Assembly: GCA_001816585.1 (NCBI GenBank)
Contig: MHCJ01000003.1
Coordinates: 11,013 to 75,012 of the forward strand
Length of the DNA stretch: 64,000 nucleotides
Direction: 5' to 3'
Source: Candidatus Chisholmbacteria bacterium RIFCSPHIGHO2_01_FULL_52_32
Lineage (GTDB): Bacteria; Patescibacteriota; Microgenomatia; UBA1400; Chisholmbacteraceae
Shown here: one piece after another, positions 1,758 through 63,880 of the stretch
Position numbering within the stretch: the first letter of the stretch is position 1
Layout: every line of letters starts with the position of its first letter
Program-made: the position numbers and the translations under genes
The notes under the pieces: generated by a model
The model's input: only the letters and a program-made list of their open reading frames with translations
What the model was told of the DNA's origin: nothing
Database searches by the model: none

Positions 1758-2783
1758 CTGATTCCTCATTTCCCCCAGGTTTTCCACACCTCCATTTGAG
1801 TTTTCCACACTTACCTTTCTTGTTCTTTTTTCCGCGAGTGTGATCAGGTTTTGGTTTGTAATTATTGTTACAGGCCTTTTTGTTTTATCCAAGTTTATTC
1901 CTATAGGATTTGACAGCTGTTGACAAATGTGTTAAGTTTGGAATTGATGCGGAAAGTCCAAAGACAGATACGAACATTTTTCCGTGGCTTAAGAAGCAGA
2001 AAAGCCCGAAGAATCAACCGCGAGAAGGGAGCGGTTGCATTTGTGACGCATCAGTTGAAAGACCTTGTCCGTTTGGATCAAAAGCTGATCCTCATGGGGA
2101 AGTGAAGCAAGTTGAAAATTTAACGTTAAAAGTTTGAAGTTTTGCGAGATAAATAAGGCTCACTACCGCTTGTCTGATGGAAAAGAGCATTACTACCGCA
2201 GCACGGTGGGCTCGAATAGCAATGCTCTTTCTTAAGAGTCGGCTCGCGTTCGGACAGGTGACGCGAAACCTAAAAGACACCATAACACGGGCTTGGCACC
2301 TTGTCAATCTTTCGCATTTTGTTTGAGTACTATTAGTGGACAACATGGATATTTCAGGTTCGACTACTTGAGTGGTGGGTGATGATCGGGCCCAGCCTAC
2401 GCAACACTGCTTTTCGCAGTCCACCAGCTGGCGGACTCGTGGGCCGGTTGCTTCGGCGGGCAGGCATGCTTGGCACGTTGGCTTATTCGACCAAGTCAGA
2501 CTGGGTTCGATAGGGATTGAATTCGACTGCTTTAGTGGTGGGTGATGTGTAGGGCAGGCGCATCACCCGCCTCTTGAGTAGTTGAGTTCAAGCTGGCAGA
2601 GGCTCGCTCTTCTTTCGCTTATCGTTTCGTTCTTGACAGATCGCTGGGAACTTGAAACAATGGGGGTTGTCTTAGACCTCTAGGGTTTTTCCTCAATGTG
2701 CATGCGAAAAACGTCTTTACGATTTGATTGAACATTCCGTTTCATGGCTATTTGCTTTTTCCATTGACCTTTCTTGTTTGTCT

Positions 2784-18451: not shown

Positions 18452-19777
18452 ATGGATGAACGGTACCGGAAATTCATTTTTCCTTCCGGTTTAACACTTC
18501 TGACGGTGCCGATGCCGGGGGTCGAGAGCGTGACCATTCTTGTGATGGTGCGGACCGGGAGCCGCGACGAACCTTCTGAGCTTTCGGGGATTTCCCATTT
18601 TCTCGAGCACATGGTCTTTAAGGGAACGGCGAAGTATCCTTCGGCCTTGGCGTTGACCTCGGCGATTGATTCAGTGGGAGGGGAATTCAATGCCTTTACA
18701 AGCAAGGAGTTCACCGGTTTTTACGTCAAGGTGGCAAGCGCCCATCTTGACAAAGGGATTGATGTTTTGTCTCAGATGCTCACAGCGCCGAAGCTTTTGG
18801 CGAGCGATATCGAGCGGGAGAAGGGGGTTGTGGTTGAGGAAATTAACCTTTATGAGGATTTACCAACGCACAAAGTTTCCGATGTGTTTGACCGGCTGAT
18901 GTACGGAGCCAATGGCTTGGGAAGAGAGACAGCGGGGAGCAAAGAAACAGTGAAGTCATTGTCGAGGGAAGACCTGCTCCGTTACCTTCGCGGGCGCTAC
19001 ACGGCGACGCGGACGGTGGTTGGTGTAGTCGGGGGGGTTGGTGGGATCGATGGAGAAAAGGAGATGCGAAGGATTCGGGAATCGGTCGGAAGAGCCTTTG
19101 CACCACTGGGCAAAGATCGTATATCTCGTTGGGGAAGTCCGGTTGAGCTGCCTCGTCGGTCTTCCGTTGCCCTCCATCCCAAGAAGACCAACCAGGCGCA
19201 TTTTATCTTGGGTGTTCCGGCGTTCCGGCGAGGGCATCGGGATCGGTTTGCCTTGGCGGTTTTGGCAACAATCCTTGGGGGAAACATGAGCTCGAGGCTG
19301 TTTTCGGAAGTCCGCGAGAAGCGAGGCCTGGCCTACTACGTCAAGTCCGATGTCGATATTTTCTTTGATACGGGAAGCATTTCGGTCCATACCGGGGTAG
19401 AGGTGGGTAAAATCGACGAGGCGATTCGGGTTACGCTTTTGCAACTTCGGCTTGCGGCAAACGGGAGCCGGGGACAAGGGATTTCTGCAACGGAAGTGGT
19501 TGCGGCAAAAGATTATCTCAAGGGCCAGTTTATTCTTGATCTTGAAGACAGCCATGAGGTGGCGGATCACTTTGTCCGTCGCTACCTTTTGGAGCAACGG
19601 ATTCTTACCCCAGGTGAGTTTTTGGCAATGATTGACCGGGTGCGACCCACGGATGTGGTACGGGTAGCTAAAACGCTTTTTAATGGGGATGGGCTGCGGT
19701 TGGCGGTGGTGGGACCGTACTCGGAAAAGGATAGACAGCGATGGGAGAGGATGATACAGTTAAAAGTGAAAAGTTAA
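18452..19777 (+). CDS. M16 family zinc peptidase (insulinase/pitrilysin-like)
   Basis: Inverted zinc motif HFLEH plus downstream E. Two-domain M16 architecture. The C-terminal tail ...QLKVKS is encoded by a GTGAAAA/GTTAAAA heptamer tract. Confidence 0.8.
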   Translation: MDERYRKFIFPSGLTLLTVPMPGVESVTILVMVRTGSRDEPSELSGISHFLEHMVFKGTAKYPSALALTSAIDSVGGEFNAFTSKEFTGFYVKVASAHLDKGIDVLSQMLTAPKLLASDIEREKGVVVEEINLYEDLPTHKVSDVFDRLMYGANGLGRETAGSKETVKSLSREDLLRYLRGRYTATRTVVGVVGGVGGIDGEKEMRRIRESVGRAFAPLGKDRISRWGSPVELPRRSSVALHPKKTNQAHFILGVPAFRRGHRDRFALAVLATILGGNMSSRLFSEVREKRGLAYYVKSDVDIFFDTGSISVHTGVEVGKIDEAIRVTLLQLRLAANGSRGQGISATEVVAAKDYLKGQFILDLEDSHEVADHFVRRYLLEQRILTPGEFLAMIDRVRPTDVVRVAKTLFNGDGLRLAVVGPYSEKDRQRWERMIQLKVKS

Positions 19778-19799
19778 AAGTGAAAAGTTGGGAGAAGGG

Positions 19800-20930: not shown

Positions 20931-20965
20931 ATTTAAAGACCTTGAAAGGTCTGACCTTTCAAGGT
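20931..20965. repeat. REP palindrome doublet (ACCTTGAAAGGTCTGACCTTTCAAGGT)
   Basis: Perfect inverted 12-mers ACCTTGAAAGGT / ACCTTTCAAGGT. The same element recurs at about 21447-21475, 21660-21695, 29668-29703, 39463-39493 and 51815-51852. A variant CCTTTAAAGGAGNCTCCCTGCAAGG occurs at 10252-10285, 20355-20385, 36690-36720 and 51146-51180. Confidence 0.8.
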
Positions 20966-21651
20966 CGGTCGATGGTGAGACCTGGAAGGAATGGGTCCGG
21001 CGTTTCATCCTTGGTTTCCACGAACGATTCGTAGGAGGTAAAGTCGATACTCCCGATTCTTCTTCTCGATTTGAAAAAGGCGAGGATTTCTTTCGGCTGA
21101 ATCCATGCGGTCGTTCGCAGCCCAAGATACTCCGCGTAACTTGAGTAGGGATAGTCTTTGAGCGGTTTTTCCCAAAATTTCATTGGATTTTTGTGGATGT
21201 AGCGACTGAGGTGGAGGAACTGCTCGTTGGTTTCCACAAGTACGGCTTTATACACACTCTCAAATAATGATCCTAATCTTCCGTGTGTCTTGTTGAAGTG
21301 AACAGCATACCGAGTTGCTAGGGACTGCATGAATTGTTTCATCATATTTTTTGTCTGTTGCATTACCAGGAGATGGAAGTGATTTGGCATCAGGCAGTAC
21401 GCGAGCAGCTTGAGTTTCCCGGAACAATTCTTGGGTTGATGCGGTATACCTTGAAAGGTCGAACCTTTCAAGGTGAAGGATTGGACGAGGGCTTGTGGGT
21501 TTGGCGGGGGTGAGAGCGCTGTTTTTAGGATATTTAGGAAGACCTGATAATCTTTTTTGCCGACAAAAATAGATCGTTTCTCAACACCCCGATTGTAAAT
21601 ATGGTAGTACCCACCTTCGACATTGATCTTGCGGGTGTGCTTTCGAGGCAT
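20959..21651 (-). CDS. IS200/IS605-family Y1 (HUH) transposase homolog; REP-associated tyrosine transposase (RAYT)
   Basis: MPRKHTRKINVEGGYYHIYNRG ... LLAYCLMPNHFHLLVMQ (HuH motif) ... catalytic Tyr region. REP copies lie immediately upstream (21660-21695), inside the gene (21447-21475) and downstream (20931-20965). Confidence 0.8.
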   Translation of the reverse strand: MPRKHTRKINVEGGYYHIYNRGVEKRSIFVGKKDYQVFLNILKTALSPPPNPQALVQSFTLKGSTFQGIPHQPKNCSGKLKLLAYCLMPNHFHLLVMQQTKNMMKQFMQSLATRYAVHFNKTHGRLGSLFESVYKAVLVETNEQFLHLSRYIHKNPMKFWEKPLKDYPYSSYAEYLGLRTTAWIQPKEILAFFKSRRRIGSIDFTSYESFVETKDETPDPFLPGLTIDRP

Positions 21652-21699
21652 AATATTTATCCTACCTTGAAAGGTCTGACCTTTCAAGGTTGGTGTTTG

Positions 21700-23874
21700 T
21701 TACGCTTCTTTTATTGTTCTTGAGTATCTTTCGCGGGAGACGCGCAGGACTTTTTCCCGGTTTTGGTTCTTGGAGCGGGGTAAAGGCAGGGTAATGGCAG
21801 GGAAGGGAGCGGAGGTGGCGTTATCGATCGAGAGTTTGATGACGATTTGGTACTTACCGAGGCTCACCAGCTCTTCCTGGGTGTAAACCCCGCCAAATTC
21901 CTTCATCAGGTGCTCGGCGTCTTCGGCACCGACGAGGAAGCCTACCAAGGTTCCTGCATTGCCGAAGATTGCCTTTTCGAGCTCCTCGTTAAGCTGGGCG
22001 ATGTATTGGTTGGCAAGGATGAGGTCCAGGCGGTATTTGCGTGCTTCGGAGAGGATTTTAATGAAGCTCGTTGTCGCAAAGTTCTGGAACTCGTCCACGT
22101 AGAGGTAGAAGTCGCGGCGCTGTGCCTCCGGGATGTTTATCCGGTTCATCGCGGCAAGCTGCATCTTGGTGATGAACATGGCGCCAAGTAGGGCGGCATT
22201 GTCTTCGCCGAGTTTCCCTTGGGCGAGGTTGACGATCAAGATCTTTCCGCTGTTCATGAGTTCCTCTAGGTTCAACGAAGAATGCGGATGGCTGATGATT
22301 TCTCTGATGGTCGGGCTGGTGACGAATTGGCCGACTTTGTTGAGGATGGGCGAGATGGCTTCCGAGCGAAGCTTGGGGTTCATCTGCGCGTACTCCTTGG
22401 TCCAGAACGTTTTGAGGGCATCTTCAGGGAGCCGGTCCACGATTGACTGGCGGAAGCTGTCATCGGTGAGGATCCGTGGCACGTCGACTAGGGTTGAACC
22501 GGGCCGCTGGACTAAGGTGAGGATCGAGTTTCGCAGGATATACTCAAGGCGCGGCCCCCAGGAGTAGTAGTAGAGCTTATAGAAGATGGCAACGATCCCG
22601 GAGGCGACCAGCTCGGCGTGGGCGGGATCGTCGACCTCCAAGGGATTCATCCGGATGACGTGCTTTGTGTCTGAGGGATCAAAGTAGACGACGTCGTTTA
22701 ACCGTTTTGCGGGAATATAGTCAAGCAGTATGTCACAGAGGTCGCCGTGGGGGTCGATGATGGCCAGGCCCTCGTCGTTTCGCATGTCGGCGATTGCGAG
22801 GTTTGCAATCAGGGTTGATTTTCCGGTACCGGTTTTTCCGATGATGTAAATGTGCTTTCTTCGGTCAAGCCGCTTGATGCCGAAGATTTGCATGCGGTTT
22901 TTAAACTCGGTGCGGGCGATGAAGTTGATCTCCCGCTTTTCCTCGTCGGTAAGGTCAATGGCAATCGGTAAGTTCTCCGGCGGTTCGCCGAGGAGGTTTG
23001 AGCCCCAAGCGATGTTGCGGATTTTGGCGAGGGTTAGGTTGGGAAGGTGATATAGTGTGGCTAGTTCTGATATATTCAGATAGTGTTTTGCCGGTGTATT
23101 TGCAAATGTACGGGTGGTGATTGACCTTAGAAATTCCCGTCTGAAAAGGGTGGGGGTTTTGAGCCGGAGGCTGTTTCCCTCGCCGATGGTGAAACTGCCA
23201 TACGAGCCGGCGATGTGCTTCAGGAGCTCTTGGGAGCGGGTTTTGCTGTCGGAATCAGTTACGAGCTTGATGCCTACCCGGAAACCAACCTCCGAGATTT
23301 TTCTTTCAATCAGCTCTTTTTGGGGATGGGCCTTGGTTTCTCCGGGTTGGCCGCCGACGGCTGGCACTCCTTTTTCAACGGCGCTTGCTCCTTTTGATTG
23401 CCAATTTCCAGAGGCAGGAGCCACCAAATACTGGACAAGCATCAGGTCATCGGGCTGGGCTTTTGCCATGGTTCCGAGGATGGCTGCCAACGGATCCACG
23501 TCCGTGAATTCTTTATAGGTTTTGAGGGGAAAATACGATGCTTGCGAGAGTGTGAGCAGGCCGACTGAGGGATTTTTCCACTCGTTCGGAGGCGGTAGGT
23601 ATTCTTTTACGGGGGTGATGATGATTTTCGGAAAGGAAGCGGAGAGTTGGGATTCGAGGTAACCTTGGACGTCCTTCGGGGCAACGACATAAAAGTGGGT
23701 GACTTGATTGATGGTGGCGATTTCGAGTGAGATGGGCTCCGGAATACCGAGGAGCTGTTTTAGAAAGGGCGTACGAAGGTGGGGAAGGGCGGCGAGGAAT
23801 TGGGCGGCGGCTTCGGGGGTTTCTTCGCTGTCGCGGGGAGTACGCAGTTCAAGGATGACGCGATCGGCAGTCAT
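21700..23874 (-). CDS. TraD/VirD4/TrwB-like coupling-protein-type P-loop ATPase with an unknown ~350-aa N-terminal region
   Basis: Walker A IIGKTGTGKST, IDPHGD, Walker B-like FYLYVDEFQNF, C-terminal LILANQYIAQL, consistent with the TrwB_AAD_bind / FtsK-HerA superfamily. The start could be as far upstream as 23976. Confidence 0.6.
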   Translation of the reverse strand: MTADRVILELRTPRDSEETPEAAAQFLAALPHLRTPFLKQLLGIPEPISLEIATINQVTHFYVVAPKDVQGYLESQLSASFPKIIITPVKEYLPPPNEWKNPSVGLLTLSQASYFPLKTYKEFTDVDPLAAILGTMAKAQPDDLMLVQYLVAPASGNWQSKGASAVEKGVPAVGGQPGETKAHPQKELIERKISEVGFRVGIKLVTDSDSKTRSQELLKHIAGSYGSFTIGEGNSLRLKTPTLFRREFLRSITTRTFANTPAKHYLNISELATLYHLPNLTLAKIRNIAWGSNLLGEPPENLPIAIDLTDEEKREINFIARTEFKNRMQIFGIKRLDRRKHIYIIGKTGTGKSTLIANLAIADMRNDEGLAIIDPHGDLCDILLDYIPAKRLNDVVYFDPSDTKHVIRMNPLEVDDPAHAELVASGIVAIFYKLYYYSWGPRLEYILRNSILTLVQRPGSTLVDVPRILTDDSFRQSIVDRLPEDALKTFWTKEYAQMNPKLRSEAISPILNKVGQFVTSPTIREIISHPHSSLNLEELMNSGKILIVNLAQGKLGEDNAALLGAMFITKMQLAAMNRINIPEAQRRDFYLYVDEFQNFATTSFIKILSEARKYRLDLILANQYIAQLNEELEKAIFGNAGTLVGFLVGAEDAEHLMKEFGGVYTQEELVSLGKYQIVIKLSIDNATSAPFPAITLPLPRSKNQNREKVLRVSRERYSRTIKEA

Positions 23875-23884
23875 GAGGAAATCA

Positions 23885-24100
23885 TAGCATATTCGCCCCT
23901 TTCTTTGCTTGTCCAAAGAAAGGGGCGAAAGAAAGGACACCCCAGTGAACGATCTCTCGGGAACTCGTTCGCTCATCCTTCGTCATCAAACTCCTCGGGA
24001 TAAACCCTTCGTCGAACAGTCGATGACATTTCAGCGGTATTCGCTCACTTCGTTCTCGAGTAGCTCCGTTCAAAGGGGGGGAGCATTTTATGCTTGAAGA
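23885..24100. repeat. Approximately 200-bp repeat element, copy A (second copy at 60925-61140)
   Basis: Shared blocks with copy B: CTTGTCCAAAGARRGGGG, CCCCAGTGARCGWTCTYTCGRGA, CTCGARTAGCTCCGYTCAAAGGGG. Contains the hairpin CCCCTTTCTTTG-cttgtc-CAAAGAAAGGGG. Confidence 0.5.
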
Positions 24101-24127
24101 TACGGGTATGGTACAATTTTGGCAACA

Positions 24128-24199
24128 CGGAGCGTAGTTCACCGGTAGAACGCTCGGTTCGGGACCGAGAGGTACTGGGTTCAATTCCCAGCGCTCCGA
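24128..24199 (+). tRNA. tRNA-Pro (anticodon CGG)
   Basis: CGGAGCGTAGTTCACCGGTAGAACGCTCGGTTCGGGACCGAGAGGTACTGGGTTCAATTCCCAGCGCTCCGA. Cloverleaf with anticodon loop TT-CGG-GA. Confidence 0.8.
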
Positions 24200-24209
24200 C
24201 TCTTTCCAT

Positions 24210-24281
24210 GTCCCTGTAGCTCAACGGATAGAGCAGAGGTTTCCTAAACCTCCGATAGAGGTTCAATTCCTCTCAGGGACA
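24210..24281 (+). tRNA. tRNA-Arg (anticodon CCT)
   Basis: GTCCCTGTAGCTCAACGGATAGAGCAGAGGTTTCCTAAACCTCCGATAGAGGTTCAATTCCTCTCAGGGACA. Anticodon loop TT-CCT-AA. Confidence 0.8.
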
Positions 24282-24720
24282 CTGCTTGGATAGGGAAAAT
24301 ATCTCCTCGTGAACCTTCGGAATAGGGTTTGTGTTCATCGGCACGCTTCTCCTCTTTCGCTTTTTCGGTCTGGGCATGATGATAGACGTTCCAATCCTGC
24401 TCGCTCATATCTGCGTATCCCGGAGCCGAGGCGATGTTGGCCATGGTTCCCAGGGTCCTATCGCCGATCGGGCGGTAGAAGGCGCCGACAACGATCTCCA
24501 CTTCGCGCTCGAAAACGACGATTGTGGCGTTTAACTCATCGAACGTTTGCTCAATGCCTGGCACAATGAGGAGACCGAAGACGCCATATCCTTCGGTGTC
24601 TTCCCGAGCGTGGTCGCCTTCATGGCTCACCGGTTCGTCAATAACGTGGGAAGGAGTGTCCCTTTCTGCCGCAGCTCTGGCGAGGTCGCCTAAGTTTGAA
24701 CCGACAACTTCCGTGTGCAT
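24244..24720 (-). CDS. Hypothetical acidic protein; 3' end overlaps tRNA-Arg on the opposite strand
   Basis: 158-aa ORF with an ATG at 24720. No family recognised. The 37-bp antisense overlap with the tRNA argues for caution. Confidence 0.35.
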   Translation of the reverse strand: MHTEVVGSNLGDLARAAAERDTPSHVIDEPVSHEGDHAREDTEGYGVFGLLIVPGIEQTFDELNATIVVFEREVEIVVGAFYRPIGDRTLGTMANIASAPGYADMSEQDWNVYHHAQTEKAKEEKRADEHKPYSEGSRGDIFPIQAVSLRGIEPLSEV

Positions 24721-29580: not shown

Positions 29581-29735
29581 CGTTTTGATTCTGGCAAGAA
29601 GTGTTGTGGCTGTCAAGCATATCCGGATGAATCTTCGAGCGGAATCCTGAAAAGAAGCAGGATTACCAACCTTGAAAGGTCAAACCTTGCAAGGTTGGGT
29701 GGACAGAGGGTTTGGATGGTCTGTACAATGAAGCT

Positions 29736-33965: not shown

Positions 33966-34078
33966 TGCTGTTTTCAGTATAGCAAATGGCCGATGGCTGA
34001 TGGCAAATGGCTGATGGCTAATGGCAGATAGCAGAGACCTAAACCCTAACCCTAAACCCTAGACCCTAGACCCTTCTT
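33966..34078. repeat. Heptamer repeat tract (ATGGCTG/ATGGCAA then CCTAAAC/CCTAGAC types)
   Basis: aatggcc gatggct gatggca aatggct gatggct aatggca gatagca ... cctaaac cctaacc ctaaacc ctagacc ctagacc. Confidence 0.75.
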
Positions 34079-38183: not shown

Positions 38184-39188
38184 ATGTTTGCGAAAAGACT
38201 TGGCATAGACTTAGGGACGGCCAATTCCGTTGTCTGGCTTGCAGGAAAGGGTATCGTTCTTAACGAGCCGACGGTGGTCGCGGTATCGATTGAAGATAAC
38301 CGGGTGGTAGCAGTTGGGAACGAGGCGCGCGAGATGCTGGGACGGACTCCCGGCAACATCGTTGCCAGCCGGCCGCTTCGGGATGGGGTGATTGCAGACT
38401 ATGCGGTCACCGAGGCGATGCTTCGGTTTTTCATCCAGCGCGTGGTGGGGAGGGCTTTCCTGTTTAAACCCGAGGTAATGATCTGTGTTCCCGCAGGATG
38501 CACCCAGGTTGAACGGCGGGCGGTTTTGGATGCGACCCTTTCCGCGGGAGCGCGGCATGCGTATCTCATCGATGAGCCGCTGGTCGCCGCAATCGGAGCC
38601 CAAGTCCCGATTGCACAAGCTTCGGGAAACATGATTGTGGATATCGGGGGAGGAGCGGCTGAAGCTGCGGTCATCTCACTTGGAGGTGTCGTGGTCCACA
38701 AGAGTGTTCGGATCGCGGGGAACAAAATTGATGAGGCGATTGCTTCGTTTATCCGTCGCAGCCACAACCTTATCGTCGGTGATCAGACCGCGGAGATGAT
38801 AAAGATTAAGATCGGATCTGCGACCCGGCTTGCGGAGGAAGAGAAGCTTGCGGTGAAGGGGAGGGATTCCATTGCCGGGCTTCCGAGAACCGTCACTATC
38901 ACGAGTACTGAGGTAACCGAGGCAATCCACCGGCCGCTTATGGCGATCATCGGAGCGGTGAAGGGCGTTTTGGAGCAGGTGCCGCCGGAATTGGCCTCGG
39001 ATATTATTGATAAGGGGATTGTGATGGCCGGTGGAACCAGTTTGCTCCGGAATTTGGATCTCCTGATGACCGAGGAAACGGGCGTGCCTTGCCATGTGTG
39101 TGAAGAACCCATGCTTGCGGTGGCGAAAGGGACGGGGATTGCCTTGGAGAATTTGGATTTGTACAAACGAAGCATTACGAGGAGATAA
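38184..39188 (+). CDS. mreB: Rod shape-determining actin homolog MreB
   Basis: MFAKRLGIDLGTANSVVW...EPTVVAV...IVDIGGGAAEAAVISLGG (actin fold phosphate 1/2 motifs). SD aaaggaga lies upstream of the ATG at 38184. Confidence 0.9.
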   Translation: MFAKRLGIDLGTANSVVWLAGKGIVLNEPTVVAVSIEDNRVVAVGNEAREMLGRTPGNIVASRPLRDGVIADYAVTEAMLRFFIQRVVGRAFLFKPEVMICVPAGCTQVERRAVLDATLSAGARHAYLIDEPLVAAIGAQVPIAQASGNMIVDIGGGAAEAAVISLGGVVVHKSVRIAGNKIDEAIASFIRRSHNLIVGDQTAEMIKIKIGSATRLAEEEKLAVKGRDSIAGLPRTVTITSTEVTEAIHRPLMAIIGAVKGVLEQVPPELASDIIDKGIVMAGGTSLLRNLDLLMTEETGVPCHVCEEPMLAVAKGTGIALENLDLYKRSITRR

Positions 39189-39328
39189 GAGTAGGGTATA
39201 GGGCTTAGGATTTAGCTTATTGGCTTGTAGCTTCTTAGTTTAATTAGCCTCTAAGCACCTCGTTTTTCCTGACTACTGAATACTGAATACCCTGCCTGCA
39301 ATTTGCAGACTCCTGCTATCATAGCCTC

Positions 39329-47615: not shown

Positions 47616-47714
47616 AACATAGGGTATAGGGTTTAGGGTATAGGGTTTAAGTGGCATGTGACGTTTTCGTTTTCACTTTTGACTTTTGAGATTTGACTTT
47701 TGCGTATATTACCC

Positions 47715-50404: not shown

Positions 50405-51145
50405 TCAGTCAACCGAGATTAATCCACGTGCTTGTGAGATCAAACGGGCGACGCTCGCATATTGAGACAGCTTATCATCGGGAATCAACTGACGAAGAGT
50501 CACGGCTTCTTGGGCTAACTGTTGGAGAGGGGGGTCTTCTCTTTTCTGCTTTGATCCTTGATTAAAGTATGTGTTGAGAAGATTCAGCGGAACGATACGA
50601 AGGAGACGTGGGACGTGTTGTATTCCGGTTTGGAAGCTATGTTCAAGTTCATCGATGAGTGTGACGCTCATTCCCTGAGTGATTTCTTTTTTTATGGTCG
50701 ACAATTGGGGGTTTTCGGCGGAAGTTTGTGTCGTTGAGAATTCGTTGGCCGTGCCTCTAGACGGAAAGAGCAAGCTGAAAACAGCTACAGTGTCTGGATG
50801 AATTACGATATGGTTGTTGATCGTGTCGTAGTGACCGCTCTGGAAGCCAAATTTTCTGAGTATCGAATTGTCGGAAACAGCCACTATATCTTCGAGTACT
50901 CCCTCATCGCTATCGAGATTGTAGGCCAGGGGAAGAAAACGGCGAGATACATATTCCCTTTCGCCAAGAACCAAGCCACCACGAATGATAATCCGATCGA
51001 GTCTCGACTGTCGACCCTGACCTAGCTCTGACATGAGCTGCGCCATAGCCTGGGGCTGAAATTCAAGGTCGAACCACTGGGGCGGATATTTCTCGTCGTG
51101 AAGCACTTCCGGAATCGTGAATGGAGTTGGGGCTTCAGGAGTCAT
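50405..51145 (-). CDS. Hypothetical protein (first gene of the REP-flanked cassette)
   Basis: 246 aa, ATG start, no recognisable motif. Confidence 0.35.
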   Translation of the reverse strand: MTPEAPTPFTIPEVLHDEKYPPQWFDLEFQPQAMAQLMSELGQGRQSRLDRIIIRGGLVLGEREYVSRRFLPLAYNLDSDEGVLEDIVAVSDNSILRKFGFQSGHYDTINNHIVIHPDTVAVFSLLFPSRGTANEFSTTQTSAENPQLSTIKKEITQGMSVTLIDELEHSFQTGIQHVPRLLRIVPLNLLNTYFNQGSKQKREDPPLQQLAQEAVTLRQLIPDDKLSQYASVARLISQARGLISVD

Positions 51146-51180
51146 AGATTACCTTTAAGGGAGTCTCCTTTAAAGGTGGG
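51146..51180. repeat. REP variant with a shared GGTGGGTTAGCCGC tail (left copy flanking gene 51181..51810)
   Basis: cctttaagggagtctcctttaaaggtgggttagccgc. The same tail follows the REP at 51815-51858. Confidence 0.7.
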
Positions 51181-51810
51181 TTAGCCGCTGATGTAGCGGG
51201 CGTGGTTTCTGACATTGGGTTCCAGAAGCGCATTGGCCTTTCGAATCTCTTGGCAGACGGTCTCTACAGGTTTATTCTCTGCGTCGATGAGGATTTGTGT
51301 ACGGAAGCGGTTCCATCCGCCATCGCCAACATAAACAAAGAAACGAGGGAGAGTAAGCGACTCAAGTTTGAACTGTGGCTCTCCCCAGGCTTGAATGTAG
51401 ATGTCTGGCCGGAGTGACCCGGTGAATCGTTGGACAGTTTGGTCGTATCTCTTGACGAGGTAGACCGCAAATTGAAGGGCGACATTTGGTGTCCAGTCGC
51501 GGCGGGTAATTTTCCCAGGTCTGGCAAAAGACATGTCATAATCATAAGATCTACTGACCGGGTAAACTGATTCTTCTGAATGAAGTACGTTGAGAAGGTA
51601 GGCATATGCCATGTCGGGCGGTCCTGGGTTGGGACGCATATTCTCAGGATATTCGATTTTTTTGGAGACTAGAGCGAGTGGCTCGGATCCGAAACGGGCG
51701 TAGAAATCCTGGGCAAAGCAAGAGAACACACTTTTAAGGAATGGGTCGTATTCAGCCCGTGAGCGTTCAATGGTGTTGCGGAGTTGGTTTCGTTCGGCGG
51801 GAGTAGTCAT
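51181..51810 (-). CDS. Hypothetical protein bracketed by direct REP copies
   Basis: 209 aa, ATG start. Direct repeats ...AAGGTGGGTTAGCCGC sit immediately at both ends. Confidence 0.35.
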   Translation of the reverse strand: MTTPAERNQLRNTIERSRAEYDPFLKSVFSCFAQDFYARFGSEPLALVSKKIEYPENMRPNPGPPDMAYAYLLNVLHSEESVYPVSRSYDYDMSFARPGKITRRDWTPNVALQFAVYLVKRYDQTVQRFTGSLRPDIYIQAWGEPQFKLESLTLPRFFVYVGDGGWNRFRTQILIDAENKPVETVCQEIRKANALLEPNVRNHARYISG

Positions 51811-51814
51811 GTCA

Positions 51815-51858
51815 GAGTTATCGACCTTGAAAGGTTCGACCTTACAAGGTGGGTTAGC
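51815..51858. repeat. REP palindrome with the GGTGGGTTAGCCGC tail (right copy)
   Basis: gaccttgaaaggttcgaccttacaaggtgggttagccgcggg. Confidence 0.7.
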
Positions 51859-51998
51859 CGCGGGCGCGGGTGATGGCCGCCCCGCACAACTCCTGCCTGA
51901 TCTACGGCGTACCGCCTGTACTCTAAGGCACGTCGTATGCGGGGCAGGCTCGAGAATTTGTCAGATCTTGCCATCGCGAATCCTGCGCGGTAATCGGA

Positions 51999-52625
51999 TT
52001 ATCCTCGAGCTCTTGTAATTGCCGCGATGATGAGGATGATGACGAAGAGGACGACAGCCACAATGACGCCGGCTCGGCGTACTCCGGAGAAGAACCCGCC
52101 TGTTTGGGGAGCGATGGTTGGGCTGGCTTCCGGCTGTTCGACAATCTCTCCGAAGCTTTGGGCTGGGGTAGTTCTGGCTGTCGGCGCGGTCGGTTGGGGA
52201 GTTCCCTCGAGGAAACGGATGGATTGGACTGCCCCTTGCATGACGATATCAGCAGAAGGGGTCCTGGCCCGGTTGCCGCGTTCCCTGGTGACAAGGAGGC
52301 TTGAGAAAGCGGTCTTCGTCTTGAACTGCGCTTTTCCGACCCCAAGGTCACCGAGTTTGGCTGCATTTCCGCCGGTGGTCGGATTAGTCCAGAGCGTATA
52401 GGTGAATTCCTCTGGAGTCGCAGGGTAGATCAGGTCACGACAGCTGACGACGACCTGGTAGTTGTAGTCGGGCATGAGTACCGAGGCGGCAAAGCAGCGG
52501 GCGGCTTGGCCCGTGGTCGAACGAAGCTCGGCGGTACCTTCAGAGGCATGCACGGCACGCGCTCCAGAAAGGAACAGCGCTGCGGCTACAAAAAAAGCGG
52601 CGGACAGAAGCCGTAATGATTTCAT
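51999..52625 (-). CDS. Secreted protein with a C-terminal TM anchor (hypothetical)
   Basis: Signal peptide MKSLRLLSAAFFVAAALFLSGARAVHA. C-terminal AGVIVAVVLFVIILIIAAIT. Confidence 0.4.
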   Translation of the reverse strand: MKSLRLLSAAFFVAAALFLSGARAVHASEGTAELRSTTGQAARCFAASVLMPDYNYQVVVSCRDLIYPATPEEFTYTLWTNPTTGGNAAKLGDLGVGKAQFKTKTAFSSLLVTRERGNRARTPSADIVMQGAVQSIRFLEGTPQPTAPTARTTPAQSFGEIVEQPEASPTIAPQTGGFFSGVRRAGVIVAVVLFVIILIIAAITRARG

Positions 52626-53768: not shown

Positions 53769-53817
53769 CGATCAGCGTGATTGTATCATAGAGGATTTTT
53801 CGGAGTCCATGAGGAGG

Positions 53818-53859
53818 TTTCTTGATTTTGGTTGGGAAAATTGTAGAATTGCGGGCAAG
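53818..53859 (+). promoter_or_regulatory. Conserved promoter/5' region, copy 1 (TTGATT-17-TAGAAT then TGCGGGCAAG ATG)
   Basis: cttgattttggttgggaaaattgtagaattgcgggcaagATG. Near-identical blocks precede the ATGs at 54755 and 55953. Confidence 0.5.
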
Positions 53860-54636
53860 ATGGGTGATCTTGAGGAGGCTAAACAAAGATATCTTGCAAG
53901 GAAGCAGGCCGAAGAAGCTGAGCAGCGAGCTGTGGAGACAGAGAGGAAAGCGGCTCTGGATTTGAAGTCCACGCAAGTGGCTGAGGAGTGGCGTCACCAT
54001 GAAGCAACATTCAAGGATCAGATTCTTCCAGCTCTTGTAGGTATTGAAGATGATTTCTGGAAGAATCATCTTTCTCCTCAAGTATTGGGTCTCTTTGATG
54101 ATGCGGCTAAAGAAATTGCAAGGAGAGAGCAAATAGCAATGAATAGGAGGATATATTTTGATCATGGAGTTGATCTCAGGGTGGAGCGAGCTCCTGATGT
54201 TACAACTGCTTACCAACGATATAAGCGTGACATGACATTGTTAGGACATTACTTGTACGGAAATTATGAGTTCAAAGAAAGACTTGATCTGAAGCATTTG
54301 ATCTCACTTTGGGAAAGTGGTGAGCTTATGCATCTCCCGGTTACCATGCTGGTTAGCTTTGGGAAAGTAGGGAGGCCGATACCCCCAACTATCGATATAG
54401 TCGGTGGGGGCTCAACATTTGAGGTAAGTTTTAGGGTTGAAAGGGATGGGGTTGTTCGTTGGGGTTGGGGAGATCTTTCTGATGAGTTAGGGGAGAGGAA
54501 GTTTCAGGAGTATAACGGAGATTTCCATACGCTCGCCGACCAATTGTGGGCTGGTATTGAAAAACGGATTTATATGAAAACATATAATATTCGAGGAGGA
54601 GTAGCACGTGATGGTGATGAGCAGGGATGGGCATGA
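53860..54636 (+). CDS. Hypothetical protein, paralog A of a three-member tandem family
   Basis: Starts MGDLEEAKQRYLARKQAEEAEQRA (charged coiled-coil-like) and shares the motif IEDDFWKNHLSP with paralogs B and C. The track ORF begins at an upstream TTG (53809), before the promoter. Confidence 0.45.
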   Translation: MGDLEEAKQRYLARKQAEEAEQRAVETERKAALDLKSTQVAEEWRHHEATFKDQILPALVGIEDDFWKNHLSPQVLGLFDDAAKEIARREQIAMNRRIYFDHGVDLRVERAPDVTTAYQRYKRDMTLLGHYLYGNYEFKERLDLKHLISLWESGELMHLPVTMLVSFGKVGRPIPPTIDIVGGGSTFEVSFRVERDGVVRWGWGDLSDELGERKFQEYNGDFHTLADQLWAGIEKRIYMKTYNIRGGVARDGDEQGWA

Positions 54637-54699
54637 GTGCGGGTTATGGGTCCCAAGGTGACCACGGTTCAGGAGCGGATAAGGGATGATGAAGATTGT

Positions 54700-54754
54700 C
54701 TAAAGATAGAGGTTTGTTGATTTTAGTGCAGAAAATTGTAGAATTGCGGGCAAA
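54700..54754 (+). promoter_or_regulatory. Conserved promoter/5' region, copy 2
   Basis: ttgattttagtgcagaaaattgtagaattgcgggcaaaATG, preceded by the conserved ggataagggatgatgaagattgtctaaagatag. Confidence 0.5.
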
Positions 54755-55888
54755 ATGGCTTGGAATCAAGAATCAGAGAGAATGAGGGTCAGGGAGAGAG
54801 AGGTTGATGAGGTCTTAATTACTCACACCGTCGAGCACGTAGTCCGGCTGACTACAGGAGCTGAGTCTGTTGATCCAATATCACGATGGGATGTTCTTCA
54901 GGAACTTGTGATTCCTATCCTAGAGCTTGATTATTGGAGAAGAAACATCACTCCAGAGATTGAAGTCTTACTTCGAAATAATGCGCTTGATCTTCAGGCC
55001 AGAGAGCGCCGTAAGTATGGAGAGACGCTGGAACTCTTGCCTCGATATTTTTCAGCAACAGCGACGGTCCTAGATGAGAGAGACAAAGTAACACTTTTAT
55101 CACGGCTTCAAAATCCCTACCGAGATATGAACCCCTCACAAATAGTTGATTTGTTATCACGAAAGAGAGGATGGGTAATGGAACAATTGGATGAGATGTT
55201 TACTGTCGGGAGAGGGTTTGTTTTTTCTCATGAGAGGTTGCTGGAAGGATTACCGCCCGAAGAATTGCCAGGAACAAGGAGGGTTTGGTGTGTAGGAGTT
55301 CAAGCTGTTGGCGACAGGATGAAAGCCTTTATAGGAAGTGAGGAGACTGACTTTAACCGTCACGTTGCGGCAAATAAAAAATGGGATAGCGCTGGTCTTT
55401 CACGGTGGTTTTCGGAGCATATTCAATCTGGAAAAAAGGGGCATACTTTTTTCCCACTTCAGTGGGATGAAATATATCGAGGAGGCTGGTATTGGAATAT
55501 TGATCAGCCCTCTATTAATAAACCAGTCGAGTTCATAGCAGCGATCTCCCATATAGGATCGTTTTCAGAACTTCTTGTACTTCTTGCAGAGAAAGACAGG
55601 TTTATCACCAAGCCAAAGGTGGTTGTTGTCAAGCCTGAAGAGCAAGAAGCGAAGCAGACACTCACGCAAACTATCTATACCCCAGAATTTGGTCTATCGG
55701 AACCGCCACTCATTTCAGATCCAAGGTTGGCTTTAAATCCTCGAGCACAGATGTTGGCGGCACAAGGGTTTCCGGAATGGAAGATACGGGCAATGTTTGA
55801 TGAGGAGGAGATGGAAATGCGTAAGCGTTCTAGTGGAGATCGCTATCTCCGAGGAGGAGATCACGCGTCGGGAGCGGATAGGGGATGA
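54755..55888 (+). CDS. Hypothetical protein, paralog B
   Basis: 377 aa. Shares LELDYWRRNITP with A and C. Ends ...GADRG, followed by the conserved GATAGGGGATGATGAAGATT block. Confidence 0.45.
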   Translation: MAWNQESERMRVREREVDEVLITHTVEHVVRLTTGAESVDPISRWDVLQELVIPILELDYWRRNITPEIEVLLRNNALDLQARERRKYGETLELLPRYFSATATVLDERDKVTLLSRLQNPYRDMNPSQIVDLLSRKRGWVMEQLDEMFTVGRGFVFSHERLLEGLPPEELPGTRRVWCVGVQAVGDRMKAFIGSEETDFNRHVAANKKWDSAGLSRWFSEHIQSGKKGHTFFPLQWDEIYRGGWYWNIDQPSINKPVEFIAAISHIGSFSELLVLLAEKDRFITKPKVVVVKPEEQEAKQTLTQTIYTPEFGLSEPPLISDPRLALNPRAQMLAAQGFPEWKIRAMFDEEEMEMRKRSSGDRYLRGGDHASGADRG

Positions 55889-55899
55889 TGAAGATTCTT

Positions 55900-55952
55900 T
55901 AAGATAGGGATCTCTTGACTTTAAACAAAGGAAATGTAGAATTGCGGGCAAT
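55900..55952 (+). promoter_or_regulatory. Conserved promoter/5' region, copy 3 (TTGACT-17-TAGAAT)
   Basis: cttgactttaaacaaaggaaatgtagaattgcgggcaatATG. Confidence 0.5.
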
Positions 55953-56681
55953 ATGAGTAGACTTGAGGAAGCGAGAGCTAGAATTGCAGCTCAAGAACAT
56001 GCGGCACAGGAAGCCAGGGAGAAATGGGAGCAAGAGGAAGAGCTACGTAAAAGAGACTTTGAGTCTCTCAAGCCTGAGCTGGAAAGAATTGAGCTCGAAT
56101 TCTGGCGGGCACATGTCCCAGTCCAACTTACTGATCTCTATTCGGAAGTGCGAAGAACAATTGAAGAGAAAGAAGGATTTCAGATGGATGAAGTCATCAG
56201 ATTTTACTATGGGGAGTATTCACTGCATCATGAGGTTGTACGTTACTCTTCTGGTAAACAAGAGAATCGATGGGATAAAATGTATGGTCTCCGAGATGAT
56301 GCGGTTGGATTATGGAGGGAAGGGAAATTAGCCCAGATTCCTTTGCGGAGCGTGTCACTTGAATATATTCATAGCAAGAGAGCTGGCGACTCTGAAACTG
56401 TCAACAGAATACACTTTGAAGTTGGTCAGGATGATAAAGCCACTTGGACTGTGGGTGACGGAAAAAAATATTTCTTTGATCCAGAAAGGGGAATACATGG
56501 GAACTTTGACAGAGATGGACATGGTAAATGTGGAACTTCCAATTCTGATATAGATTTACTCGCGGAGCTTATGATCCCGTTTATTAATGGAAGACAATAC
56601 CATTACGGGATTGATCATTCTCCTGGTCCAAAAGACCGAGCTGGTGATGATGGGAGCTCTGGTGGTCCTGGCGGGCATTAG
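55953..56681 (+). CDS. Hypothetical protein, paralog C
   Basis: MSRLEEARARIAAQEHAAQEAREKWEQEEELRKRDFESLKPELERIELEFWRAHVPVQL; Gly/Asp-rich C-terminus. Confidence 0.45.
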   Translation: MSRLEEARARIAAQEHAAQEAREKWEQEEELRKRDFESLKPELERIELEFWRAHVPVQLTDLYSEVRRTIEEKEGFQMDEVIRFYYGEYSLHHEVVRYSSGKQENRWDKMYGLRDDAVGLWREGKLAQIPLRSVSLEYIHSKRAGDSETVNRIHFEVGQDDKATWTVGDGKKYFFDPERGIHGNFDRDGHGKCGTSNSDIDLLAELMIPFINGRQYHYGIDHSPGPKDRAGDDGSSGGPGGH

Positions 56682-56786
56682 GTAACTTGAGGATCAGCCA
56701 TAGGCTTGATCTGAGCAGAGGATGTCTTCCTTGTTAGATTCCCCTTATCGTTGTCTTCTTTCTCCATCTCGCATATAGTTAATTTT

Positions 56787-56855
56787 ATGCGTGTGCTTTT
56801 TGTTGCCGCGGAGGCGGCGCCTTTAGTCAAGGTCGGGGGTTTGTCGCAGTCTTAA
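56787..56855 (+). pseudogene. Truncated remnant of a glycogen synthase (glgA) 5' end
   Basis: atgcgtgtgctttttgttgccgcggaggcggcgcctttagtcaaggtcgggggtttgtcgcagtcttaa encodes MRVLFVAAEAAPLVKVGGLSQS*. The 5' part matches glgA-2 (57831) and the GGLSQ part matches glgA-1 (46092). Confidence 0.55.
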
Positions 56856-56897: not shown

Positions 56898-57539
56898 TTA
56901 AACAGCTCGTACTACTTCCGGATCTCCTTGACTAAACCGAGAAAGCTCTTGTTTTATGGCTTCGGGGTTGCTATTCGCCCTTATTAGAGGACCCATCGTT
57001 TCGGATAGCCATTTACCGTCGATTGTTTGCTGGGAATCACGCAAGATTCTCCTGCCGTCACTGGCCAGTAAAGACCAGGCTACCCCGCTTGATAATGCGT
57101 GCTGTCGTTCGTTGGGTCCTCTGGAGGTGTTGAGAAGCTCACGGATATAGGTTGCAAGCAGCCAGCGCTGGGCTCCTGCCGCTCTTTCGGATCCCAACTC
57201 CCTATAGTGTGAATAGTTGGGTAGATTTCTTATTCTTTCTACAAGAGCTTCTCTTGTCCGATCGAAGAAAGAATCCGCAACGCCGCTATTGCCGGAAAGA
57301 TACAGACGCATTGAAGATACTTCAAGTTTCACCTGTTGTCGTAATAAGCCTTTTATGATTTTGTCCGCAGCCTCCAGTCCACTTTTTGTTGAATCAAACT
57401 CGGCAAACCTTTCTAGTGCATCAAAGACGCTGCGTATTCCATCCTCAGTCTTCCTCTTTACTTCTGCGAGGAGGGTTTCTTTTTTCTCGGTTGGCGTTTG
57501 TTCTTGAGGGATTCCTTCTTCCTCGGGAGGTTGTTCCAT
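56898..57539 (-). CDS. Hypothetical protein
   Basis: 213 aa, ATG start, acidic N-terminus. Confidence 0.35.
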   Translation of the reverse strand: MEQPPEEEGIPQEQTPTEKKETLLAEVKRKTEDGIRSVFDALERFAEFDSTKSGLEAADKIIKGLLRQQVKLEVSSMRLYLSGNSGVADSFFDRTREALVERIRNLPNYSHYRELGSERAAGAQRWLLATYIRELLNTSRGPNERQHALSSGVAWSLLASDGRRILRDSQQTIDGKWLSETMGPLIRANSNPEAIKQELSRFSQGDPEVVRAV

Positions 57540-57738
57540 AGCCTTCTTGTTGTAGAGGACTGAAGATAGTGTACTACAAAAAGGACAGTATAAACATTCC
57601 TTGCGAGGTAGTCTTGAGAAGTCATTGGGGAACCAGAGCGGTTCCTTCGTGGACGCTCTTCTTGAAACGAAAGGCGTGCGAGGAGAATTATCTGAAGGTG
57701 GGACATAATTCCTAGGTTCTTTGACAACTTGTCACGTA

Positions 57739-57772
57739 GAGGTCGGACCTCTGCACAGAGGTCCGACCTCTT
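57739..57772. promoter_or_regulatory. Perfect 15-bp inverted repeat (AGAGGTCGGACCTCT gcac AGAGGTCCGACCTCT) in a divergent intergenic region
   Basis: Read directly in sequence. Lies between the minus-strand gene 56898..57539 and glgA-2. A related GGTCCGACG-tta-CGTCGGACC hairpin occurs at about 61041-61065. Confidence 0.45.
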
Positions 57773-57830: not shown

Positions 57831-59159
57831 ATGCGCGTCTTATATGTTGCTGCGGAGGCGGCGCCGATTGTCAAGGTCGGGGGTCTTGGGGATGTAGCGG
57901 GAAGCCTTCCTTTGGCTTTGAAGCGGCTAGGGGTGGATGTGCGGGTGGCTATCCCCTGGTATCCGGAGATCGATGCTTTGCGATGGCAAGTTCAGGAGAA
58001 CGGTGGGGTGGGGGTGACGAGGCTTGGCGAGAGCGAGGTGCCAGTCTATCTTCTGGCTCGGGATGTGTTTGCCGATGCCGGGCCTCATAAGGCGATCGCG
58101 GGGACGAAGGCAGAGGAAACCTGGTTCTCCGGTTTCTGCGATGCGGTCGTAACGTTTCTGAAAGACTCCGAATGGAAGCCGGAAGTCTTGCACGGGAACG
58201 ATTGGCATGTGGCACGGGCCTTGTCCTTTGTTGAGAGAACCTCTCGTGAGACCTTCAGCCAGTGGGGATTTACCCATAAGAACCTGGCGACCATCCTCAC
58301 CATTCATAACCTCAGCTACCACCCAAAAATGATGAAAGAGGCTATTCTTGCTGCGGATGTGATCAACGCGGTTTCACCGACCTATGCGAAAGAAATTCTT
58401 ACTTCAGATTATTGCGAGGGACTCTGTGAAGAGCTCAATGCACGGAAAGCAGATCTTTACGGGATCTTAAACGGGATTGATTACGGAGTTTGGAGTCCGG
58501 AGACGGATGCGCGTGTCTCGACTAAGTACAGCACGGTAACTTGGAAGACGGGAAAAGCGGGAAACAAGATGGCTTTGCGGCAGAAGCTCGGTCTTGCAAA
58601 AGAGGGGGGAATGCTTCTCGGGTTTGTCGGCAGGATCGACGCCAACCAGAAGGGCATCGGGATTTTGGCTGAGGCCATGGACCGGTTGGTGGCGTTGGGT
58701 AGCCAGGTGGTCGTACTGGGGACCGGTGACCCGAAATATGAGAAACGACTGGCCTTGGTGGCTGCCCGTTATCCGAAGAACGTCGCATGTATTTTGCGCT
58801 ACGATGAAGATTTGGCGCACCTTATCTATGCGGGGGCGGATGCGCTGCTTATTCCGAGCAAATTTGAACCCTGCGGATTGATCCAATTGATCGGCATGCG
58901 GTATGGAACTCTCCCAATTGCGCGGGCAACCGGGGGACTTTCCGATACTATTCGGGACGGTGAAACCGGGTTTCTGTTTACCGCATATTCTTCTCAAGGG
59001 TTGGTCGGGGCCGTTGAGCGGGCCCGGGACATGTTCGCGGCCGAACCGGTTTCATGGGAAGTGTTGGTCGGAACCGGCATGCGCGAGGATTTTTCCTGGG
59101 ACCGTTCGGCTGAAGAATATCTTAGGCTGTATGAGCGCGCGCTTGCAAAAAGTGGGTAG
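57831..59159 (+). CDS. glgA: Glycogen/starch synthase (GT5), paralog 2
   Basis: MRVLYVAAEAAPIVKVGGLGDVAGSLPLAL (canonical K-V-G-G-L-G-D-V). GT-B C-terminal domain. Confidence 0.85.
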   Translation: MRVLYVAAEAAPIVKVGGLGDVAGSLPLALKRLGVDVRVAIPWYPEIDALRWQVQENGGVGVTRLGESEVPVYLLARDVFADAGPHKAIAGTKAEETWFSGFCDAVVTFLKDSEWKPEVLHGNDWHVARALSFVERTSRETFSQWGFTHKNLATILTIHNLSYHPKMMKEAILAADVINAVSPTYAKEILTSDYCEGLCEELNARKADLYGILNGIDYGVWSPETDARVSTKYSTVTWKTGKAGNKMALRQKLGLAKEGGMLLGFVGRIDANQKGIGILAEAMDRLVALGSQVVVLGTGDPKYEKRLALVAARYPKNVACILRYDEDLAHLIYAGADALLIPSKFEPCGLIQLIGMRYGTLPIARATGGLSDTIRDGETGFLFTAYSSQGLVGAVERARDMFAAEPVSWEVLVGTGMREDFSWDRSAEEYLRLYERALAKSG

Positions 59160-62689: not shown

Positions 62690-62745
62690 ACAGATAGGGT
62701 TTAGGGTATAGGGTCTAGGGTTTAGTGTCTCGAATAAAAGAAAGC
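62690..62745. repeat. Heptamer repeat tract (TAGGGTx) in the rplJ leader
   Basis: cagatagggtttagggtatagggtctagggtttagtgtctcg. Confidence 0.75.
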
Positions 62746-63723: not shown

Positions 63724-63880
63724 TCCTTTGGGATGTCGGGCGGTTTCACTTACTGCCATTGGCCCATATTACCCTATAGCGCATGGCCTGTCAATGGTAT
63801 ACAGGCTATGTTTTTTTACCACAACTGCCGCAGTAGGAATCTCCACTGAGATTTCTGTATACTGTTCATGAAAGGAGTAT

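Follow-up and report, generated by a model that had tools for sequence, protein, structure and literature searches.

Conserved 5' regions in front of divergent or mosaic paralogs have been described in other bacteria. The vlp and vsp genes of Mycoplasma are tandem paralogs with their own similar promoters and 5' ends and with divergent bodies; they code for phase-variable lipoproteins, and the switch is a homopolymer tract within the spacer of the promoter. In the polymorphic toxins Rhs and CdiA it is the C-terminal toxin that varies, followed by an immunity gene. Leaderless or near-leaderless genes, with the -10 box ~6–12 nt before the start codon, are known from Actinobacteria and Deinococcus-Thermus, and an extensive leaderless transcriptome has reportedly been found in Mycobacterium tuberculosis. 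The erp genes of Borrelia burgdorferi (ospE/ospF/elp, with their "upstream homology box") are paralogs in which a conserved promoter/operator and start of the open reading frame (ORF) precede diverse bodies, with frequent recombination, and their co-expression has been inferred from the shared promoter (PMC10016077). Here we describe three consecutive genes, g1, g2 and g3 (the cassette), located upstream of the glycogen synthase gene glgA in Candidatus Chisholmbacteria bacterium RIFCSPHIGHO2_01_FULL_52_32, an uncultured organism of groundwater, within a stretch of 64,000 nt of contig MHCJ01000003.1 that we call the window. With moderate confidence, we read them as a small and fast-evolving mosaic family of Candidatus Chisholmbacteria and a few other Patescibacteria, whose members have their own conserved promoters and occupy a variable spot upstream of glgA.

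The promoter core in the window and in related organisms

The three same-strand ORFs reported by an earlier reading of the sequence alone (hereafter the sequence-only reading) are present on the plus strand (Table 1), and each of them is preceded by the arrangement TTGAyT-16 nt-TAGAAT-TGCGGGCAA-N-ATG. This arrangement belongs to a 50-nt block found at 53814–53863, 54709–54758 and 55907–55956, whose second and third copies are 88 and 68% identical to the first. A scan with a sigma-70-type consensus found all three sites, with scores of 9–10 out of 12, and runs within the spacer reach at most A4. The sequence-only reading had described 60–80 nt of nearly identical sequence upstream of each gene and a 17-nt spacer between the -35 and -10 boxes; the 50-nt block is real, but the conserved stretch before g1 covers only ~47 nt and the spacer measures 16 nt. 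Its main observation, that a promoter-like block heads highly divergent coding sequences, stands, and these sequences are in fact mosaic.

The most useful concrete result is the conservation of the promoter core across species. In locus L026 (loci and family proteins from other organisms carry our own numbers) the family gene P0009 is preceded by TTGACT, 16 nt and TAGAATTGCGGGCAAT-ATG, and the sequence TTGTAGAATTGCGGGCAATATG ahead of it is the g3 copy save for the first base (ATG... in g3). X1, a gene of 336 aa in L041, follows TTGACA, 16 nt and TAGAATTGCGGGCAAG-ATG, and P0012, in the syntenic locus L027, follows TTGAGT..TGTAAAATTCGGGCAAT-ATG, with a version of the core that is one base shorter (TGTAAAATTCGGGCAATATG). 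From the -10 box through the ATG this 22-nt core is identical at 20–22 of 22 positions in all pairs among g1, g2, g3, L026 and L041, and that of g1 is identical to the L041 copy. The 16-nt spacers agree pairwise at only 4–8 positions, with the exception of g1/g2 (12/16). As a reference, the glgA proteins in the L026/L027/L041 comparison are only 68–70% identical, and the identity of the family proteins of these related organisms to those of the window genes is 34% at most. Since the core was kept across organisms while the proteins and the spacers diverged, purifying selection has probably acted on the -10 box, the discriminator and the start, indicating that the core would not be held by gene conversion alone. 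Gene conversion had been put forward by the sequence-only reading as the way in which such blocks are maintained, but the core is as well kept between organisms as within the window, which argues against conversion as the main cause.

It could also be that the similarity is a by-product of recent tandem duplication or of conversion at the junctions, the block being merely any working promoter. This would account for the 43 of 50 positions shared by the g1 and g2 blocks and for their similar spacers, for the two tail-to-promoter junctions, which over 48 nt, non-coding bases past the stop codon included, are 83% identical, and for the tail relic behind g1 (described below), which could be copied junction DNA. 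We consider it improbable. The g3 spacer is as far from those of g1 and g2 (6–8/16) as the copies of other species are, with the core at 20/22, and L026 and L041 have the same core, and L027 a close variant of it, despite glgA being only ~70% identical; at such a distance neutral DNA would not be expected to be identical at 21 of 21 positions. The comparison across species largely refutes this explanation. Only the g1/g2 promoter pair looks recently duplicated or converted, and intragenomic conversion or recent duplication would be needed only for this pair and for the two junctions.

L052 gives a hint about where transcription would begin. There, the homologous promoter GTTTCTTGATTTT..GGGAAATTGTAGAAT-GGCGAGC-ATG has its ATG at the place where the window has AAN, and the two promoters of this locus (TAGAAT-GGCGAGC-ATG and TAGAAT-CACTGGC-ATG) leave 7 nt between the -10 box and the ATG. 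A start site at the A that follows TGCGGGC is supported by this arrangement, because the L052 ATG falls exactly there. We also considered the palindrome ATTGC-GG-GCAAT as a possible operator, and downgraded this idea because L027 keeps CGGGCAAT without the symmetry.

Specificity of the block and leaderless starts

The window has three exact copies of the 17-mer TGTAGAATTGCGGGCAA, all at the promoters of g1–g3, and allowing up to three mismatches adds no further site (0.20 expected; none of 100 shuffles reached three). Both in the window and in all the loci examined, CGGGCAA-N-ATG behind TAGAAT or TAAAAT was found only at family genes. A 19-nt pattern of the block had 13 matches in 596 Gb of genomes, a collection that does not contain the source genome; all were in unrelated taxa, and their number is about what we estimate for chance. 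The scan of metagenomes gave 17 matches, and only those in L041 and L044 were relevant. A repeat dispersed over many unrelated promoters, the finding that by the sequence-only reading would have undone its proposal, was thus not seen in the window or in the related loci examined.

The TAGAAT box lies 10 nt before the ATG (TGCGGGCAAN) in the three genes, none of which has a GGAGG-like Shine-Dalgarno motif, and with a promoter-like element so close to the ATG the predicted mRNA leader is ~0–4 nt. The near-leaderless layout proposed by the sequence-only reading is therefore there, but it is not special to the cassette. Among the 55 window genes (long ORFs), 18 have a TANNNT 5–11 nt before the first ATG, compared with 6% of internal ATGs (p = 7e-7, odds ratio 7.3), and Shine-Dalgarno-like motifs are not enriched at the gene starts of the window. 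Near-leaderless starts are a genome-wide habit, ordinary for this genome, and what is special to the cassette is the invariant G+C-rich discriminator and leader.

The same figures bear on the possibility that the block is nothing more than a dispersed repeat, or the promoter or leaderless consensus that this genome uses in general. One third of the window genes do have a -10-like box 5–11 nt from the ATG, and several GGGC-type discriminators are found elsewhere in the window (e.g., TATACT-GGGCAT-ATG at 14611 and TAATAT-GGGCCA-ATG at 63759). However, the 17-mer is restricted to the cassette, none of the other 10 CGGGCAA sites of the window is in a promoter-like context, and the other leaderless-type promoters differ in hexamer, discriminator and spacing, so that we take this explanation as extremely improbable.

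Proteins of the family and their modules

g1 and g3 align over their full length with ~25–27% identity (BLASTP E = 1e-5 for the best stretch, of 123 residues). The similarity of g1 to g2 (BLASTP E = 0.003) is confined to 42 aa around the motif (I/L)E(L/D)(D/E)(F/Y)W, and no significant BLASTP match was found between g2 and g3. When the family profile built on g1 and g3 (core A) was compared with g2 and its homolog (core B), hhalign gave a probability of 9.5% over 35 columns. The only common ground of g2 with the other two is the region of ~40 aa with the ELDYW motif, the first codons and the tail. The motif itself, noticed by the sequence-only reading, is present in the three proteins (IEDDFWKNHLSP in g1, LELDYWRRNITP in g2 and IELEFWRAHVPV in g3). 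Given that g1 and g3 align over their full length and g2 matches only locally, g1 and g3 are by their sequences true paralogs and g2 is a third gene that shares modules only; the paralogy claimed for all three thus applies to g1/g3 and not to g2.

When 1.84 billion representative proteins were searched with the family profile in HMMER, 10 family proteins were retrieved. Against the family hidden Markov model g1 scored E = 3.8e-68, with 20–28% identity to other members, and g3 scored E = 3e-93, with identities of 46% to P0005, 42% to P0006 and 36% to P0007. Word-seeded homolog searches returned only self matches for g1 and g3, and for g2 a single homolog, P0004 (48% identity). g1 and g3 are identical to the hypothetical proteins A3F04_02245 and A3F04_02235 of a Candidatus Chisholmbacteria bacterium. 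The NCBI model of g1 (275 aa) begins at 53809, 17 codons too early, so that the promoter block is translated (MRRFLDFGWENCRIAGK). Since all family members begin M-x-x-L-E-x-A-R, the start at 53860 is preferable.

The members share a C-terminal domain of ~90–130 residues (..DPxFxxPxWIP...RYFPsGDHASGADRG), which is common to P0009 and L052_A (core A), to X1 of L041 (a third core), to a relic in L041 and to P0004 (core B), and which in g2 has shrunk to the last ~25 residues. X1 matches the family through this domain only. At the other end, g2 and X1 have in common the promoter and the first ~8–11 codons (MAWNQESERMR and MSWLQDSEHAR; blastn 83% over 48 nt), and their bodies are unrelated. By sequence comparison, at least three unrelated cores are placed between the shared promoter and first codons and the C-terminal domain. 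The tail is apparently constrained as a peptide, since the differences between its codons at different loci are mainly synonymous. In L032 and L052 the family genes form a tandem pair, a long tail-bearing member followed by a short one. The sequence of L041 suggests an array of at least three tail-bearing genes. In the same locus, an ORF end at 1–105 (..DPFTF..SSGFGEMSGTADL and stop) resembles the family C-terminal domain and is located directly before the promoter block of X1.

The sequence-only reading had placed a GGAT..GATT block upstream of each gene. We found GGATArGGGATGATGAAGATT at only two junctions, 54677 and 55876, where it is the coding tail of the preceding gene and not a promoter element. 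With the 55876 copy the coding sequence of g2 ends (..GGDHASGADRG, then TGA TGA). That at 54677 encodes the tail ..GDHGSGADKG, also followed by TGA TGA, off the frame of g1, whose stop codon is at 54634–54636; an indel of a single base in the region of GGGATGGGCATGA would be enough to rejoin this tail to g1. L041 has at 2284–2484 a similar out-of-frame copy of the C-terminal domain, with a different frame offset. A programmed frameshift from g1 into the relic was considered and rejected, since in L041 the relic comes after a stop codon and its frame is offset the opposite way, and the actual end of g1, GDEQGWA, resembles that of P0006, GEHELDGWS. Judging from these sequences, the tail relics are better read as rearrangement debris than as recoding.

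Database searches gave little help. Scans of g1–g3, their neighbors and their homologs with Pfam, NCBIfam, PHROG and PADLOC gave no match (DUF7952, with E = 0.016, was below threshold), profile searches of the PDB with the family and with its C-terminal domain gave only E > 0.4, and searches of phages and viral contigs found no relatives. Two candidates were discarded. A viral match to the back-translated tail was due to chance (it fell in an alternative reading frame in a high-GC phage), and an identity as HU/IHF was rejected because the PDB profile match to IHF-alpha had E = 0.45 over 39 residues and the hhalign probability was 12%. The three proteins are acidic and hydrophilic, with isoelectric points of 4.6–5.8 and grand average of hydropathy values of -0.5 to -1.0, and no signal peptide, transmembrane segment or lipobox was found in them (maximum 19-residue hydropathy 0.3–1.8). 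In the weak AlphaFold2 model of g3, a long N-terminal helix precedes a body rich in beta structure, and the tail is disordered.

A model for the family and its possible function

Under the reading that we favor, each gene would be its own transcription unit, driven by a sigma-70-type promoter (TTGAyT, 16 nt, TAGAAT) followed by the 7-nt G+C-rich discriminator TGCGGGC. Initiation is predicted ~7–8 nt past TAGAAT, at the following A, leaving a leader of ~3 nt (AAN) before the AUG and no Shine-Dalgarno motif. The terminator scan found nothing between g1, g2 and g3, and Rfam gave no match in the 50–60 kb part of the window. The most likely role of the core is to set the start site and to place all copies under one regulatory input, either control through the discriminator or a factor that binds over the start site, and because of this shared input the copies would be co-expressed. 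The products would be acidic, soluble and modular proteins, in which ~10 conserved first residues and, in the core-A members (g1, g3), a charged N-terminal helix with a possible role in oligomerization are followed by a variable core of one of at least three unrelated types and by the C-terminal domain or tail (..RYFPsGDHASGADRG), possibly a common docking or sorting peptide. The family would grow and change as genes are duplicated in tandem, swap the cores that lie between their conserved ends, or decay and leave tail relics behind. Our best guess about function, held with low confidence and drawn from sequence features, is that these are soluble binding or adaptor proteins under common regulation, whose exchangeable cores recognize changing partners and whose docking tail is shared.

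Several points weigh against this picture. The block TAGAATTGCGGGCAA appears specific to the family as judged on 64 kb of a contig of ~1.16 Mb. The distant members P0005, P0008, P0010 and P0011 have different discriminators, and P0004 a Shine-Dalgarno-type start, so that the exact core would be a feature of the clade and not of the whole family. The TTGC..GCAA half-palindrome is not kept in L027, which weakens the idea of an operator. We infer promoter use and the 3-nt leader from the sequence, and the roles given to the domains are guesses, because the AlphaFold2 models are poor (predicted local distance difference test, pLDDT, of 54 and 41).

The sequence-only reading had proposed effector, surface, immunity or defense roles, i.e., a diversifying cassette whose cores take part in a host or phage conflict and whose conserved ends serve expression and export. 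Some features would fit. Between glgA and a conserved gene for a membrane protein lies a hyper-variable spot whose ORFans are lineage-specific, the cores are mosaic, and the extreme C-terminal tail is conserved. The distant member P0005 is found beside PhdYeFM/ParE and RHH genes (L025, 897–1925), and P0008 near pilins of a type IV secretion system (T4SS), AbiEii and NTase/HEPN pairs (L028, 1–6164), a mobile or defense-island-like context that is not seen in the window. In addition, there is a VirD4/TrwB-like coupling ATPase in the same window. On the other hand, this ATPase is 30 kb away and otherwise unlinked, and g1–g3 showed none of the matches, export signals or viral relatives that were looked for in the searches described above, nor any toxin-like domain or adjacent small immunity-like partner; PADLOC gave for the neighbors a single, meaningless match to PtuB (E = 0.053). 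Variation in the number of cassettes, which the sequence-only reading had suggested looking for in other strains, was not seen. The 24 g3-carrying contigs that were read all have the identical three-gene layout, with no variation in copy number or sequence. All this makes such roles rather unlikely.

A related proposal is that the family provides co-regulated, exchangeable substrates for a secretion or transfer machine of these episymbiotic bacteria (e.g., T4SS-like, with the VirD4/TrwB-type ATPase), the tail (..RYFPsGDHASGADRG, or DDDxGIxPI in short members) being the recognition signal and the cores host-directed effectors. We would give it only a slim chance. Were it true, the conserved discriminator would tie the expression of the copies to one signal.

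Genomic setting

The coordinates of the cassette and of the features associated with it are listed in Table 1.

Table 1. Features of the g1–g3 cassette and its downstream flank (window positions)
Feature	Position	Strand	Description
g1 promoter block	53814–53859	+	-35 TTGATT 53822–53827, 16-nt spacer, -10 TAGAAT 53844–53849 (predicted)
g1 G+C-rich discriminator and short leader	53850–53859	+	TGCGGGCAAG
g1	53860–54636	+	258 aa, short-type family member (core A), divergent, ends ..GDEQGWA and stop
Tail relic	54633–54689	+	MSAGYGSQGDHGSGADKG and stop; out of g1 frame; 83% identical to g2 tail region
g2 promoter block	54709–54754	+	-35 TTGATT 54717–54722, -10 TAGAAT 54739–54744, TGCGGGCAAA 54745–54754 (predicted)
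g2	54755–55888	+	377 aa, core B; last residues GGDHASGADRG (coding 55855–55888)
g3 promoter block	55907–55952	+	-35 TTGACT 55915–55920, -10 TAGAAT 55937–55942, TGCGGGCAAT 55943–55952 (predicted)
g3	55953–56681	+	242 aa, core A, a typical member of the short type; N-terminal helix long and charged, body rich in beta structure, tail acidic and rich in glycine
Stable stem structure after g3	56689–56758	+	z = -2.2; possible transcription-unit end, weak: no T-tract
glgA 5'-end fragment	56787–56840	+	54 nt, 106 nt past g3; 83% identical to 57831–57884

The cassette is part of a glycogen neighborhood, with a GT5 synthase gene at 46092, GH57 genes at 47700 and 49047, and glgA at 57831. It is flanked by opposite-strand ORFans and has a G+C content of 43–46%, compared with 50–58% in the flanks. 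No integrase was found among the neighbors scanned, and the g1–g2 and g2–g3 spacers fold worse than their shuffles (z = +1.0 to +1.4), so attC-like folding is absent at the junctions. In both L027 and L041 the family gene or genes are directly upstream of glgA, and L027 also has an ortholog of the 208-aa membrane protein encoded at 51999–52625 of the window. The glgA fragment just past g3 is also 83% identical to the start of glgA in L041, including 14 nt upstream of the ATG. Its position suggests that an insertion of ~1 kb split an ancestral junction between g3 and glgA, the order of a family gene followed by glgA, still intact in L027 and L041, being probably the ancestral one. The ~1-kb segment 56841–57830, between the fragment and glgA, looks like such an insertion, one that duplicated the glgA start.

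This segment contains a minus-strand ORFan of 213 aa (56898–57539) and, at 57738–57771, a perfect palindrome pair, AGAGGTCGGACCTCT-GCAC-AGAGGTCCGACCTCT. The same palindrome (~92–94%) is found ahead of both family promoters in L032 (1205–1251) and L052 (~45–88 and ~1300–1345), loci of another organism, and may be a shared terminator, an insulator or a small mobile repeat. In L027, two tandem ORFans (2177–3177; 174 and 151 aa), 37% identical to each other, are immediately upstream of the family gene, a further case of local duplication within this hot spot.

On the other side of the cassette, the minus-strand ORFans at 50405–51145 and 51181–51810, which have no BLASTP similarity to each other, share a 38-nt junction block (51151–51188 and 51824–51861) consisting of a GCGGCTAA stop, the hairpin ACCTTnnAAGG..CCTTnnAAGGT and a start, with the exact 16-mer AAGGTGGGTTAGCCGC in both copies; a similar ACCTTGCAAGGT hairpin is present near 29690. 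Short words, imperfectly reiterated (AAAGTGAAAAGTTAAAAGTGAAAAG, TTTTGACTTTTGAGATTTGACTT, CCATCAGCCATCGGCCATTTGC and CCCTAAACCCTATACCCTAGACCC), were seen in intergenic regions closely upstream of gene starts at ~19750–19790, 47660–47700, 33970–34010, 38780–39190 and 62690–62740. The VirD4/TrwB-like coupling ATPase (21700–23976, minus strand) adjoins an IS200-like Y1 transposase (20959–21687, minus strand) and is followed by tRNA-Pro and tRNA-Arg genes (24128–24282). The whole region 20959–24282 may be the remnant of a mobile or T4SS-related region.

Comparison with known systems

Like arrays of Rhs and CdiA, the cassette has exchangeable parts between conserved segments and relics beside intact genes, but here the conserved part is the C-terminus, and no toxin or immunity domains were found. 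Unlike in the vlp and vsp genes, runs in the promoter spacer do not exceed 4 nt, and the assemblies (24 contigs) all agree. As candidates for the identity of g1–g3, the vlp-type family, polymorphic toxins, integron cassettes, defense systems and HU/IHF each failed at least one of the defining features tested. Like in leaderless genes, TAGAAT ends 10 nt from the ATG without a Shine-Dalgarno motif, in a pattern that is enriched in the window; the difference is that transcription is predicted to start ~3 nt before the AUG, the L052 promoters being, by sequence, the truly leaderless ones.

The erp genes appear to be the closest architecture, in both cases a conserved promoter core and ORF start (here the first ~10 codons) followed by diverse bodies, of which the g1–g3 family has at least three unrelated types. 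The resemblance would be one of evolutionary design only. The erp genes code for surface lipoproteins with a conserved signal or leader peptide, are carried by cp32 prophage plasmids and are controlled by BpaB, BpuR and EbfC. g1–g3, in contrast, have no signal peptide or lipobox, begin with charged helices, are chromosomal and stand in tandem upstream of glgA, and their family has a common C-terminal domain and near-leaderless predicted mRNAs. By itself the locus reveals no new mechanism, because Borrelia and Mycoplasma already provide examples of conserved 5' regions with mosaic paralogs and leaderless starts are general in this genome. What it does define is an uncharacterized protein family with a conserved C-terminal peptide, and a spot upstream of glgA that is a small hot spot of ORFan birth, duplication and loss. 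The feature is real and non-random, and the family, small and new, comes from a phylum that has been little studied but is assembled in a known manner. If our reading holds, it would be a concrete and testable example from the candidate phyla radiation of constraint at the level of the promoter, in which a 22-nt segment is kept across species while the genes behind it are reshuffled.

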